Positions 45,004-57,394 are shown, numbered from the stretch's first letter. The stretch: 64,000 bases of DNA from Candidatus Versatilivorator sp. (GCA_965207735.1 OZ242296.1:1088001-1152000); one strand, 5' to 3'. The notes: generated by a model from the letters alone, not told the origin. Translations and numbers: made by a program.

Positions 45004-45173
45004 CTAATCTGCGGGTTGCGGATCGTCCCCCGGCTCTTGGGCCAGGTAACGTGCCCAGTCCTCCATCAGGACACGCCGGCGGTCGAACAGGTCGGAGCGG
45101 GCATAGGCCGCCTCGACCCGGTTGCGAACCACATGCGCCAGGGCCGCCTCGATCACCTCCCGGGGATGGTCGG
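45004..45173 (-). pseudogene. displaced 3' end of the outer-island integrase
   Basis: DHPREVIEAALAHVVRNRVEAAYARSDLFDRRRVLMEDWARYLAQEPGDDPQPAD*; in frame with 57394-56320 across the DR. Confidence 0.88.
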
Positions 45174-45260
45174 ACCGCTGAAAAATTTAGATAAAGTATT
45201 TATTACAATATACTTATACCTCATGGGCTGGCTTGTGGTCTCCCAATAGGTCACCCTCTA

Positions 45261-45815
45261 TCAAGGTGGTCTCGGAATCCGTTTTGGTGCAGAAAACCCG
45301 GGTAACTGTTCGGTCAAGCTGTGGGGTCCATCCGCCGTCCGGGGGAGGCGTAGCGAGCAGAACCGGCGGATCGCCCGTGATTGCAGGCACCTCCAACCTC
45401 GTCCGGATCCAAGCCAGCACGGCCTGACCGAACAGTTACAAAACCTAACAGCTGACGCTACCGGGGATTTGAGGTGAGGACGTACAATCGGATCAGATGA
45501 CCATACAGCGCTTCCGGGCCATGGGGAAGACCTATTCTCGATGAAGTGTTGGGCTTTCGGCCCGACTTCATTGAGCATCAGCCTAGCCGGGGTCCATCCA
45601 GGGATGGGTTCGAGGGGCGCGGGCCTGACCGGTGTCGGCCAGTTCATTCGCATCCGTGGGAGCGGCACCGCGCTCGCGGTCGAGGGCCTCATCAATGAGG
45701 GCGGCAGCCGGGAGCCGAGGTTGAGGTGCCGCCGGGTGCGGAGGCGCTGGAGGCGTTGACAGGTCTCGGAAGAGACGCGGATACGAAGTGGAACACGGTG
45801 CAACATAAGATACAC
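45261..45815 (-). pseudogene. possible decayed small DNA-binding protein gene
   Basis: N-terminus LRIRVSSETCQRLQRLR resembles a ribbon-helix-helix; frame unclear downstream. Confidence 0.3.
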
Positions 45816-45896
45816 GACAACACATAAAGCAACAATCAGGTTACGAAGCTACACGGGGCGACACTCAACCACCATAAGCGCGCAACGGCGCTCGAT

Positions 45897-46212
45897 GGCC
45901 TTCCCGCCAGGGATCACTGTTGAGAGAGCGACCTCCCCAAAAGGGGGGCAAAGGGCCGACACCTTTGCCGACACCTTTTCCCGCGCCCGTGGCGCACCAG
46001 CGGGGAAAAAGGGGGGGTCGCTCTCTCCACCAGCACCCCTCTCGTGCGGCGCGCCGTTTCGCCGGGCGAGGGGGGGACACGCGAGGCGCAGCCTCGCTTC
46101 GCCTTTTCGCAGCGGACGCGGGAAATCCGTGTTGTTCCGCGTCTGATGAGGCGTTTCGGGAAAGTCACGAACCACAACGGCGAGGGAGCGCCCTCTGAGA
46201 GAAAGACGTTGT
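45897..46212 (-). repeat. conserved structured non-coding module (copy)
   Basis: IR GAGAGAGCGACC/GGTCGCTCTCTC at 45922-45933 and 46016-46027. Confidence 0.8.
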
Positions 46213-46707
46213 ACGTAGCAGGATCTCCGACATGTTAGTCCGACACCCCCCCTTCGGAAAGGTGTCGGCCCATCTGACGACACCGCCTTGACCCCCAGAG
46301 TCGGAAATCGTCGATCATTTCGCGGCCGGTGGAGGTTGGCGTTTCCTGGTCCCATTGGTCGATCTTCTCCATGACGACACTGAGGCCGGCGTGGCGTTCG
46401 ACGGTGTCCTGTCCCCTGAATCCGCGAGCTTTGCCGGGCAGGCTGGACTTTCTCACTCTCTGGCATACCAGAACTCCCCGAAACGCCTCCTGGACCGATT
46501 CCGCTCTCAGAGACCGCAGGTCTCGCCGCCTGTGGGGAAATCGGAATGGCCGGCCCCGACAGTGAACCGCACTGGGGCGTGGTCGCAATTCGGTCTCGGC
46601 CAACCGTCCCTCCACCTGCACCCCTCTCGCACGGCGCGCCGCCGCGCGAGGCGGGGACAGCGGGGCCGGCGCCGCACCGCGTAGTGCCGGGGAGCCAGCC
46701 TACCCAA

Positions 46708-54587: not shown

Positions 54588-54599
54588 CTAGGTGGCTCA

Positions 54600-54935
54600 C
54601 GCTTTTGACCACCCCAACGCTCCTCTCTCAGTGGGCAAATTCCTCGCCGTTGTGGTCCAGGCTATGCCCGGGAATCCGCATTGGACAAGGGTTGGCACGG
54701 ATTCCCCAAATCCTCTGCGGTAAATCGCAATGCGGCGCCGCGCCACGGTGTCCCCGCCTCGCACGGCGCGGCGTGGCGCCGCACGGGAGGGGGAGGAAGT
54801 GGAGGGAGCGACCCCGGCTTTTTTGCCGCTGGTGCGGCACCGGGCAGGGGTAGGTGGTGCACGCCAAAATCCACCACCACCCCTCCCCTTTTCGGGGTCG
54901 CTCCCTCCACAGTGATCCCTGGCGGGAAGGCCGCC
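54600..54935 (+). repeat. conserved structured non-coding module (copy)
   Basis: 18-bp perfect IR at 54799-54816 and 54893-54910. Confidence 0.8.
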
Positions 54936-54996
54936 GTAGCGGTGACGAAGCCCGGATCGGAACACTGACCACAGGGGGAGCACGAGAGGGGCCAAC

Positions 54997-56166
54997 TCAG
55001 GCAGCGGCCGTTTTCCGGCCCGCGCCCAGGAATACCGCCCACTGCTCCATCAGGACGCGCCGGCGCTCGAACAGGTCCGAGCGGGCGTAGGCGGCTTCCA
55101 CTTGGTTGCGGACCACGTGCGACAACGCTGCCTCCATCACGGCATGGGGCGCATCGGTCTGCTCCCCCGCCCAGTCCCGGAACGAGGAGCGAAACCCATG
55201 CGGCACGGCCCCGATTCCCAGTTCCCGCAGCAGGGTGCTGAGATCGCGGTCCGGCAGTGGGCCACCGGCCGGAGTCGGAAACACCAGATTGGAAGATCTC
55301 TCGATCCGCCTCGCTTCAGCCAGAATCCTCCGCGCTCCCGTAGACAACGGGACCCGGTGCTCTCTCTGGTGCTTCATCCGTTCCGGGGGAACCGTCCACA
55401 CTCCCGCCTCCAGGTCGATCTCCGCCCAGCGCGCCCCGCGCATCTCCCCCGACCGGCACGCCGTCAGCACCAGGAACTCGAAGCCGAGCTTGACCCCCAC
55501 GTCTGCTTCCGATTGCCGCACTGTCCGGATCGCCCCGGCCACCTCCCCGTAGGGCAGCGCCTTGAAGTGGCGTTGGATGCCGCCCTGTTTCGGCAGCGCG
55601 GCCCCGAGCGCCTCCCCGGCCGGATTGTCCATCCGGTAGCCCTGGGCAATGGCCCACTTCATCACCGTGCCGATCCGTTGCCGCACCCGCCGGGCCGTTG
55701 CCTGCCTGGTGTTCCAGATCGGCGACAGCACAGCCATGACATCGGCCGTGGTGATCCCGTCCACCCGCATCCGGCCCAGCTTGGGGTAGACGTAGCTGCG
55801 CAGGCTGCCTTTCCACTGAGCGGCGTGATGGTCGCTTCTCCAGTTGGGCCGGTACATGGCGTAGACCTTGGCGGCGGCCTGCTCGAAGGTCGGGACGGAG
55901 TGGCGCCGGGAGGCCAGGGGATTGCCGCCGGAGCGGGCCAGCCGGCGGTTGGCGATGGCCCTCTCCCGGGCCTGGGCCAGCGTCACGAGCCGAAGAGAGC
56001 CGAGACCCAGCTCGCGGCGCTTGCCGTGGATGAAGAGCCGTTGGATCCATTGCTTGTATCCGGAGGGCTTGACCCGTAGGATCAAGCCATGCTCGTCCCA
56101 GTAGAGTCCGGGCTGCTCGACGGTGCGGACGAAGGCGGCGGAGAGTTTCTTGCGGTAACGAGTCAC
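54997..56166 (-). CDS. P4-like tyrosine integrase of the inner element (intact)
   Basis: TACRSGE, HGFRSSFR, ALSH, AAY all present. Confidence 0.93.
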   Translation of the reverse strand: MTRYRKKLSAAFVRTVEQPGLYWDEHGLILRVKPSGYKQWIQRLFIHGKRRELGLGSLRLVTLAQARERAIANRRLARSGGNPLASRRHSVPTFEQAAAKVYAMYRPNWRSDHHAAQWKGSLRSYVYPKLGRMRVDGITTADVMAVLSPIWNTRQATARRVRQRIGTVMKWAIAQGYRMDNPAGEALGAALPKQGGIQRHFKALPYGEVAGAIRTVRQSEADVGVKLGFEFLVLTACRSGEMRGARWAEIDLEAGVWTVPPERMKHQREHRVPLSTGARRILAEARRIERSSNLVFPTPAGGPLPDRDLSTLLRELGIGAVPHGFRSSFRDWAGEQTDAPHAVMEAALSHVVRNQVEAAYARSDLFERRRVLMEQWAVFLGAGRKTAAA

Positions 56167-56319
56167 CGGATCACCCCCTAGAAAATCACCCTATAGATCA
56201 CCCTGAACGTCCAGGAACACCCTGGACATCAATAGACGCCAATATACCATAAGTGACTCATACAAGTCTACTTACAATACTTTAGTAGATGTCTCTGGAA
56301 CTTTCTGGACTCTGCACTG

Positions 56320-57394
56320 GGGGATGGTCGGTCTCTTCGGCCGCCCAGTCCCGGAAGCTGGAGCGGAAACCGTGCGGCACCGCCGCAACCCCAAGCTGGC
56401 GCAGCAGTCGGCGCACCGCGCTGTCATGCAGTGGCTTCCCGCCCCCATGGGTGAACACCAGCGGACCGGCTCCCCCTTCCAGTGCCTCCGCTGCTTCGAG
56501 AATCTCCAGGGCTCGGCCACACAGCGGCACGCGGTGCCGGCGGTTCGTCTTTGCCCGCTTGACCGGGACGATCCACACCCTCCCGTTGCGATCGATCTCC
56601 TCCCACTCGGCCCACCTCACCTCACTCCACCTGGCCGCCGTCAGCACCAGGAACTCAAGGGCCAACCTGGCGGCCGGCAATGCGGTCGATGCCCGCACCT
56701 TCCAGATCACCGCAGCCGCCTCCCGATGGGGCAAAGCCCGCATGTGCTCGGTCACGTCCTTTTGGGGACCCAGCACCGGTCCGATCCGGTCACAGGGGTT
56801 GTCGATGCGGAACTCCATGGTCACGGCCCATTCCAGAACCGCATGCAGGCGCTGGCGCACCCGCTTGGCCGTGGCTACCTTCCGGTGCCAGAGGGGCGTG
56901 AGGATCTCAAGCACGTCGGCACTGGTGACCTCGGAGACGGGCACCTTGCCGATGCGGGGAAAGACGAAGCGCCTCAAGCTCGACTGCCACTCCCGGGAAT
57001 GTCTCGGGTTCCGCCATCCGCCCCGCTTCTGTTCCAGCACACGCATGGCGGCTTGGGCGAAGGTGGGAATACCCTCGGCGCGCCGCTTCTCGGCAAGCGG
57101 GTCCCCGCCCGTTCGGGCGAGCTTTCGGTTCGCGAGCGCCTTCTCCCGGGCCTCGACCAGGGAAACGAGGGCAACGCTGCCGAGTCCGAGCTCACGGCGG
57201 CGGCCACGGATGAGGAGGCGTTGAATCCAGCTGCGTGTTCCGCTGGGCTGGACGAAGAGGTACAATCCGTTTCCATCAGCGTGTCTTCCGGGCGGAGCAG
57301 AGCGAATGAAAGCAGGAGAGAGAGCCTTATGGGGATGGCGGCCCTTGGGTTTCGTTTTAGGTAGCAGACGGGCTGTACGTGATCCAGTAATCAT
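56320..57394 (-). pseudogene. 5' part of the outer-island integrase, interrupted before the catalytic His/Tyr
   Basis: Homology stops at WAAEETDHP exactly at the DR; the remainder is at 45004-45173. Confidence 0.9.

Follow-up and report, generated by a model that had tools for sequence, protein, structure and literature searches.

How does the integrase gene of a genomic island come to lie in two pieces, with the codons for its catalytic tyrosine 11 kb away from the rest, and could the gene be made whole again? The question is raised by a 64-kb stretch of the genome of Candidatus Versatilivorator sp. (GCA_965207735.1, OZ242296.1:1088001-1152000), which we call the window and whose positions serve as coordinates wherever no other reference is named; the genome itself is a single contig of 5.26 Mb. 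From our analysis it is quite probable that 45174-56319 is an integrative element (the inner element), most likely self-inserted, in the integrase gene of a 42.4-kb island (the outer island), and that a 12-bp core found at both of its junctions is the attachment site, as predicted from sequence comparison. The parts on which the argument turns are given below with coordinates, strand, identity and basis; ORF stands for open reading frame and aa for amino acids.

56332..57394, minus strand: N-part of the outer integrase, 354 codons before the core and, with the core, to residue 358 (...TDHP); ORF, Pfam, blastx
56320..56331, minus strand: core J1, the inner element's left junction (CCGACCATCCCC on the gene strand); 12-mer, start of 13 of 14 left-end homologies
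56171..56204, minus strand: GGGTGAT three times in tandem directly before the start of the inner integrase, predicted to be arm-type or operator sites; left-end alignment
54997..56166, minus strand: inner integrase, 389 aa, intact; Pfam Arm-DNA-bind_3, Phage_int_M, Phage_integrase (to 168/172)
45174..56319, minus strand: probable inner integrative element, 11,146 bp between the cores; cores, BLAST, family ends
45251..45260, plus strand: right-end arm-like motif TCACCCTCTA; motif search
45162..45173, minus strand: core J2, right junction of the inner element; 12-mer
45004..45161, minus strand: fragment A, last 52 codons and stop of the outer integrase, with the catalytic His and Tyr; frame, paralog identity

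The outer integrase gene and its rejoining

On its own strand the outer gene reads to ...FRSSFRDWAAEETDHP and then through 12 codons of foreign DNA until a stop at 56282, the present ORF (57394..56282, minus strand, 370 aa) thus consisting of ...WAAEETDHP and 12 foreign residues. All three domains of P4-type integrases (Arm-DNA-bind_3, Phage_int_M and Phage_integrase) are found by Pfam in the N-part, and blastx aligns its residues 1-358, stop-free, at 90% to the closest paralog. In the outer product the Phage_integrase match breaks off at profile position 142 of 172, while that of the inner integrase extends to 168 of 172. When the region was compared by BLAST with the whole genome, the homology of about 20 intact paralogs ended at 56320 and picked up at 45173. 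Directly after core J2, in the same frame, stand DHPREVIEAALAHVVRNRVEAAYARSDLFDRRRVLMEDWARYLAQEPGDDPQPAD and a stop codon, and with its frame set by the repeat fragment A translates as DHPREVIEAALAHVVRNRVEAAYARSD...PQPAD*. The preliminary description of this DNA had the integrase (57394 to 56320) stop at ...WAAEETDHP and placed its missing 52 residues, with His and Tyr, at 45004-45161, and both statements hold, the catalytic residues being placed by motif.

Neither half of the gene contains a stop or a frameshift. Rejoined at the repeat in silico, by script, they give an ORF of 410 aa. The closest intact paralog has the same length, and the two align colinearly with 0 gap columns and 89.3% identity; the rejoined ORF is the uninterrupted integrase of ~410 aa that had been foreseen.

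Tyrosine recombinases carry the signature R-K-H-R-H/W-Y, with the Tyr near the C-terminus. The core encodes T-D-H-P and falls between the H-x-x-R motif, which the N-part retains, and the His...Tyr motif, now 11 kb away. Sequence matches to solved structures cover the N-terminal and central domains only, with no solved catalytic domain among them, and the catalytic Tyr was therefore assigned by motif, as were the other catalytic residues, by motif alone (HGFR in the N-part; LAHVV...AAY in fragment A and in the inner integrase). Judged by this signature the present 370-aa product would be without a nucleophile, because the inner element brings no replacement sequence. Precise excision would likely restore the 410-aa ORF including the His and Tyr motif, and for that reason the disarming of the host island is likely to be reversible.

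A palindrome, CCATCCCC-N8-GGGG(G)ATGG, lies at 57385-57420 and at the same place in 15 paralogs. In these outer-type integrases it overlaps both the start codon and a TATAAT box; its half-site is similar to the att core's 3' half, and it may be an autoregulatory binding site.

The core and the ends of the inner element

The 12-mer GGGGATGGTCGG, which is CCGACCATCCCC on the gene strand, occurs in exact copies at 56320-56331, 45162-45173 and 43090-43101, the first two being the junctions J1 and J2, where the identity reported in the preliminary description is perfect at 12 of 12 positions. The number of copies is not above chance: a search that tolerates one mismatch gives 3 matches where 1.01 are expected, and as many are reached in 11 of 100 shuffled sequences. 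The weight of the core evidence therefore lies in its position and not in its count, given that both the breaks in paralog homology and the ends of the element family fall at the core.

Within the insert the inner integrase stands 154 bp from J1, intact and with the three P4-type domains, as had been said of it. At the place homologous to the core its own gene reads CCGATGCGCCCC. The motif TCACCCYYTA occurs only twice in the whole window, at 45251 and at 56171, each ~80-150 bp inside an end of the insert (chance expectation 0.22; 2 reached in 3 of 100 shuffles), in agreement with the arm-like sites noted earlier at both ends.

A family of inner-type elements in the genus

We surveyed 14 genomes of the genus, 13 of them besides the window's own, for the ends of the insert. 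A left-end probe found 14 left ends in 8 of the 14 genomes, and in 13 of these the common sequence starts exactly at C[C/G]GA[C/T]CATCCCC, with L033 having a deviant junction. All three GGGTGAT motifs are complete in 12 of the 14, while L028 and L029 each have one copy with a one-base change. What lies upstream of the core varies: the integrase N-part to residue 358 in 5 of 14 (one of them only from residue 152), a remnant of 17-22 residues in 2, the end of a repeat termed R (described below) in 2 plus 2 ambiguous ones, unrelated DNA in 2, and the deviant junction in 1. A right-end probe applied to the 14 genomes gave 21 right ends, 13 with the core followed by an integrase C-fragment and 8 without. 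Elements with well-paired ends measure 4.6 to 26 kb and differ in flanks and cargo.

The genome studied here has a second family member (~4237360-4263480 in genome coordinates, 26 kb), whose integrase region is 95% identical in nucleotides and whose cargo differs from that of the window's element. It carries the 12-bp direct repeat CGGACCATCCCC at both ends, with 66 nt of the N-part of a different integrase on the left and no integrase fragment on the right. Another member, L141 in genome G011 (C1:3397500-3408900), sits in a sodium:solute symporter gene with the exact 12-bp core CCGACCATCCCC at both ends; its contents include an AAA_27/Metallophos pair together with a transposase. Given an insertion in this gene with the same repeat, the core alone can serve as target.

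When ends were paired by coordinates, four integrase genes in three genomes proved to be split by an inner-type element:

this window: insert of 11.2 kb
G008: insert of 9.5 kb
G011: inserts of 8.6 kb and 14.7 kb

The identities of the N-parts differ, and the four split genes are therefore separate targets. Two of the four can be restored in silico, the one in this window to 410 aa and one in G011 to 408 aa. The family's own integrase genes have CCGA[T/C]GC.CC.C at the homologous codons at all 12 loci with a match (14 tried).

Among the other members the cargo includes restriction-modification genes (XamI/Eco57I-type, type ISP, Dcm/Vsr), an ApeA-like HEPN protein, a STAND NTPase, AAA_21 with DUF4276, AAA_27 with Metallophos, and leucine-rich repeat (LRR), ankyrin or tetratricopeptide repeat (TPR) proteins; by annotation, then, the family's cargo is variable and consists mostly of putative defence genes. 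Relatives of the inner integrase in other phyla, at identities up to 83%, lack both the core at -166/-172 and a split integrase gene upstream. Four loci from one Pseudomonadales metagenome-assembled genome (L103, L107, L111 and L118) hold tandem integrase pairs, in which a full-length gene ends ~56 nt before the next, an arrangement unlike the split-integrase nest.

The outer island

The limits of the outer island were provided by a sister genome, G002, which lacks it.

15195..57548, no strand assigned: outer island, 42.4 kb, composite; absent from G002, direct repeat
15185..15194, plus strand: far-end direct repeat TGCTGCACAG (attR side); sequence beyond it matches the G002 empty site
57549..57558, plus strand: integrase-proximal direct repeat TGCTGCACAG (attL side); G002 homology (94%) ends at 57550

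In G002 the cysK flank is 94% identical to the window as far as 57550 and then continues as the window does at 15194 and below, the two flanks of this empty site being ~0.1 kb apart within one copy of a dispersed repeat that resembles a miniature inverted-repeat transposable element (MITE). The 10-mer TGCTGCACAG occurs just twice in the window, at 15185 and 57549. Together, the empty site and the restriction of the 10-mer to these two places identify the outer island as 42.4 kb with a 10-bp repeat, so that the nested structure of the preliminary description stands, the outer island having bounds of its own. A search for a second copy of the 18-mer at the island's end found none at up to 3 mismatches, the true repeat being the 10 bp. 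The outer integrase lies ~155 bp from the island's right end. At the cysK flank none of the 13 other genus genomes has the island, and the window has no tRNA gene.

The MITE-like repeat that the island splits is represented by 57559-57750 and 15070-15184; the genome holds more than 60 occurrences of its inverted ends (CATCGATGCACAGGAT...). The four closest intact paralogs of the outer integrase share the kind of sequence found at the island's left junction, which makes it plausible that paralogous integrases could act on the island in trans.

Further layers of the locus

The preliminary description had passed over several layers of the island: a third copy of the core followed by another, degraded C-terminal fragment, a second integrase, and insertions of insertion sequences (IS) and an intron. 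Those that lie beyond J2 on the strand of the outer gene are these:

43695..44981, minus strand: IS630-like element (helix-turn-helix ORF 44600-44887; DDE_3 ORF 43741-44955), later insertion; Pfam, genome BLAST
43193..43629, minus strand: repeat R, a GC-rich hairpin-bearing module that adjoins integrases genome-wide; BLAST
43090..43101, minus strand: core J3; exact 12-mer, 15 bp common to J1 and J3
42945..43089, minus strand: fragment B, second integrase C-terminal fragment, of a different subfamily, stop codon lost; identity, 457 aa when joined to the N-part

The IS630-like element, which has a 100% identical copy elsewhere in the genome, stands between fragments A and B. Fragment B was considered as the true C-terminus of the outer integrase and rejected: in the C-part, identity to the two closest paralogs is 92.8% for fragment A and 80.8% for fragment B, and the product joined to fragment B would have 457 aa instead of 410. 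Likewise rejected was an inner element that runs from J1 to J3, given that 13 of the right ends found in the genus have the form of J2.

Repeat R has no Rfam family at E <= 1 except for the neighbouring intron. RNAalifold of 38 R copies gave about -43 to -48 kcal/mol over ~470 columns, with one clear long hairpin. Part of R consists of the 3' end of orf331, a gene for a 331-aa protein that usually follows these integrases (intact copy at G000 5053932-5054927), and a GC-rich hairpin region. At six loci an integrase or its C-part is followed by R, a second core and an orphan C-fragment, with 720-820 bp from core to core (window 42945-45173; G000 1938833-1939749, 3183235-3182343, 3849685-3850499, 4593543-4592563 and 2976056-2976934). 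The conserved end of R (...GAATGGCTGAAGA) directly precedes the core at 8 of 55 core-bearing sites examined. Such a composite may represent a non-autonomous cassette whose integration at the core supplies a replacement integrase 3' end, or the scar of an accretion and a later deletion; R-end, core and C-fragment might also form a "decoy landing pad". A "mini-integrase" frame of 181-200 aa, which joins integrase residues ~7-53 to ~279-383 by internal deletion, occurs in five copies (window 685-1173, minus strand; G000 3238646, 4406740, 4512202 and 5152687), with R directly beside it at 4 of the 5 and the nearest R pieces ~1 kb away at 4512202.

The inner element has the following further contents:

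52886..54591, minus strand: IS with DDE_Tnp_1_4 transposase (53125-54492) and 23-bp terminal inverted repeats, later insertion; Pfam, repeats
49653..51961, plus strand: cargo genes for a ShosT-like phosphoribosyltransferase (49653-50474), a ShosA/DprA-like protein (50464-51459) and a HAD hydrolase (51392-51961); PADLOC, Pfam
48296..48868, plus strand: HNH endonuclease gene; Pfam HNH 5.9e-11
46708..47573, minus strand: ORF-less group II intron, 866 nt; Rfam group-II-D1D4-4 77 bits, Intron_gpII 36 bits

PADLOC assigned ShosA at 1.7e-67 and ShosT weakly at 1.1e-5 (Pfam Pribosyltran 0.0069), Pfam found DNA_processg_A and HAD_2, and the ShosT-like and ShosA-like genes overlap by 11 bp; the pair is a putative Shosta-like (ShosTA) defence system. 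The IS at 52886-54591 has ~20 copies in the genome at 99.9-100% identity, a sign, from sequence identity, of a recent burst, and contigs of runs X3 and X5 have the same cargo without it. The group II intron lies between two partial R copies and is skipped exactly by contigs in all four sequencing runs that we consulted. Remnants of orf331 lie on the minus strand at 49022-49303, 47727-48155 and 46235-46621; the protein has no Pfam match at E <= 1 and a single PHROG match at 0.046. In the right arm of the element, at 45302-45439, is a 138-nt element with 22-bp inverted ends, of which four other places in the genome hold copies at ~91% identity.

The rest of the outer island (15195-42900) is a mix of defence and eukaryote-like proteins. 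The island's content comprises an IS, a 759-aa ankyrin protein, an MmeI-type restriction-modification enzyme (27819-30569), RelB, a DEAD helicase with a T5orf172 protein, Sel1, and a BlaI/BlaR1-like pair with CarboxypepD_reg repeats. It also holds a second intact full-length integrase (35199-36500) and a further C-fragment with R (22390-23392).

Excision and the competing explanations

Several observations count against an insertion that remains precise and reversible. At 98% likeness neither the empty-site joint of 45161 to 56320 nor a circle joint was found in the contigs of the four runs (X1, X2, X3 and X5; ~4-6x), but because these are contigs only, with a depth of 3.8-6.3 over the strain's unique cargo, the missing joints do not speak against excision. 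At 90% likeness the joint of 45161 to 56320 does appear, in X2, X3 and X5, and is gone at 98%; such joints fit paralogous intact integrases, several of which carry the identical core uninterrupted, and were rejected as excision products. In X1 and X2 a loose end of 9 letters at 56320 comes from a short contig that departs from the window a further time at 56362, as the paralogs do. No intact allele of this outer integrase stands at this locus in the 13 other genus genomes. The inner element may be ageing, carrying as it does an IS, a group II intron and broken copies of orf331. Domain scans covered 25 and 32 ORFs of the two elements, and among these no excisionase-like gene, that is, no recombination directionality factor (RDF), was recognised, ORFs under 60 aa lying outside the scan. 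Two of the other nests have decayed: that in G008 has lost a base at the core, has a C-fragment of 63% identity and has a truncated inner integrase, and one in G011 has an N-terminal frameshift in the target integrase.

It is conceivable, then, that the insertion was real but that the inner element is now immobile, the outer integrase being a two-piece pseudogene and the outcome loss of function only. The IS, intron and orf331-like pieces within the element, the unrecognised RDF, the missing joints and the decayed nests of G008 and G011 all favour this fossil reading. We nevertheless think it unlikely, given that the inner integrase is full length with all its domains, that the cores are identical and the arm-like motifs conserved, and that other samples have the same cargo without the IS, which makes this decoration recent. 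The many differently loaded copies of the family in the genus also point to recent activity.

The ordered cascade of the preliminary description, one of its two readings beside a lock on the host island, would mean that the split is kept as a switch, such that a signal leads to excision of the inner element, the outer integrase is rebuilt, and the 42-kb island is then excised in a hard-wired order. Exact restoration of the ORF in silico from halves free of stops and frameshifts, the perfect cores and the second restorable nest in G011 (408 aa) are all consistent with such a programmed cascade. The further lesions in 2 of the 4 split integrases argue against a maintained switch, and the element also occupies core copies outside integrase genes, so that its target is a sequence and not this island. 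Furthermore, the same cell has about two dozen full-length paralogous integrases (24 of 72 matches), which speaks equally against a strict lock on the outer island. The lack of an excision joint is a weak point here as well, and we hold the cascade to be improbable. Compared with a maintained cascade, we find a selfish "safe harbour with reversible disarming" the likelier reading, given that two of the four nests are decayed and that paralogous integrases could substitute in trans.

Recombination between the cores of paralogous integrases, by inversion, translocation or unequal exchange, might instead have put unrelated DNA between the halves. The core is common to many paralogs, and across 17 of them the identities of N-part and C-part are nearly uncorrelated (r = 0.11), which suggests exchange at or near the core; together with the composites of integrase, R, core and C-fragment, the pattern looks like repeated exchange at the core. 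Yet the segment has the conserved left and right ends of a discrete element family, one integrase beside one end and cores in direct repeat, and a family member lies in an unrelated gene with the same repeat. A rearrangement is thus very unlikely to have produced this locus.

An assembly artefact between paralogous integrases is less credible still. The genome does hold dozens of integrase copies, several of which agree throughout 43 nt around the core, but J1 and J2 join integrase to unique element ends and not to another integrase, and independent assemblies show the same architecture at four other places. Moreover, the inner element is distinct from the only paralogous one in the genome (95% in the integrase, with other cargo) and so needs flanks of its own.

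In archaeal integrases of the SSV1 type and in IntP/IntX of phage Mx8, the integrase gene is split by the element's own attP. As here, the att core lies inside the integrase coding region and a C-terminal piece (~50 residues) is separated; there the gene is the element's own and here another element's, the insert has a complete integrase of its own, and the order of N-part, insert and C-part on one strand, where self-splitting needs the C-part first and the N-part last, rules this last alternative out.

Relation to known elements

Interrupted genes rebuilt in frame by excision are known from the developmental genes that host cells carry, such as those broken by skin (sigK) in Bacillus subtilis and by the nifD, fdxN and hupL elements in cyanobacteria. 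Here too the interrupting element brings a recombinase of its own, and precise excision would put the gene back in frame; in those hosts excision is terminal and under host control, whereas the gene that would be rebuilt here is that of another mobile element. Islands with P4-type integrases accrete in tandem, usually in tRNA or tmRNA genes that the element restores. The same three domains, short direct repeats and stacking of elements at one locus are seen here, but the outer island lies in a dispersed repeat and the inner element in an integrase gene that it leaves unrestored.

The closest analogue is provided by the HE-PICIs of Enterobacterales (PICI, phage-inducible chromosomal island), satellites with tyrosine integrases that sit in prophage late genes for capsid, portal or tail with no replacement sequence in attP (PMC10111431). 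Their authors speak of a regulated gene integrity that serves the embedded element, showed excision by induction, and name in addition one PICI whose site is an IS110 transposase gene (PMC10111431). Like the inner element, a HE-PICI is a small tyrosine-integrase element at a fixed site in a host-element gene that is whole only after its exit; there, the target is a prophage late gene and not the recombinase of a genomic island, and excision was shown there by induction where here the rejoining is in silico. Among the 25 and 32 ORFs of the two elements, neither phage structural domains nor signature domains of PICIs turned up.

A second comparison is with streptococcal integrative and mobilisable elements (IMEs) that lie in genes of integrative and conjugative elements (ICEs) of the Tn5252 superfamily, namely Maff2-like, SNF2 and traG/VirD4 genes (PMC5704250). 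There too site-specific nesting disrupts a conserved gene of the host element, whose mobility may suffer or which may carry the guest in cis; unlike the inner element, these IMEs use serine recombinases, have conjugation-related targets and are mobilisable through an origin of transfer (oriT) or a relaxase, and the available sections name no integrase gene as target (PMC5704250). Relaxase, coupling protein and type IV secretion system domains were absent among the ORFs scanned, small ORFs and oriT lying outside that search. In a collection of open-access papers searched by exact phrase, no description of a bacterial element that targets integrase genes came up. Nested gene-interrupting elements are thus a known kind, as HE-PICIs and streptococcal IMEs attest, and what is new here is a rival recombinase as the target.

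A model for the nested islands

In the model that we favour, the selfish safe harbour, the inner integrase would recombine the 12-bp core, and the GGGTGAT motifs would serve it as arm sites or as operators. The family would be specialised on a core sequence that does the host cell no harm and, with ~two dozen integrase paralogs, is abundant. A core within an integrase gene would offer a safe landing site together with a ride on resident islands, and inactivation of the resident integrase would be either a by-product or a competitive benefit. The resident island would be without a recombinase of its own for as long as the guest stayed, and precise excision would give the recombinase back.

More tentatively, and with the balance somewhat against it, this defence-carrying lineage might be regarded as an "anti-integrase" hyperparasite. 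Its attachment site would be the T-D-H-P codons of a rival integrase family, and it would land only in other mobile elements, remove the catalytic tyrosine, ride along, and return the tyrosine on leaving, while its own integrase, mutated at the same codons, would escape self-targeting. The ~770-bp cassettes of C-part and R might then be a benign counterpart that brings a spare integrase 3' end.

Genes held hostage in this manner are known among prophage late genes and ICE conjugation genes; here it is a recombinase, the gene that decides whether an island moves. The two related integrases, with their different defined core sites, make a compact pair for studies of specificity. If excision is real, the mobility of one island would be conditional on the behaviour of another, a testable conflict or hierarchy between islands, and defence islands could thereby be stabilised in genomes where mobile DNA abounds.

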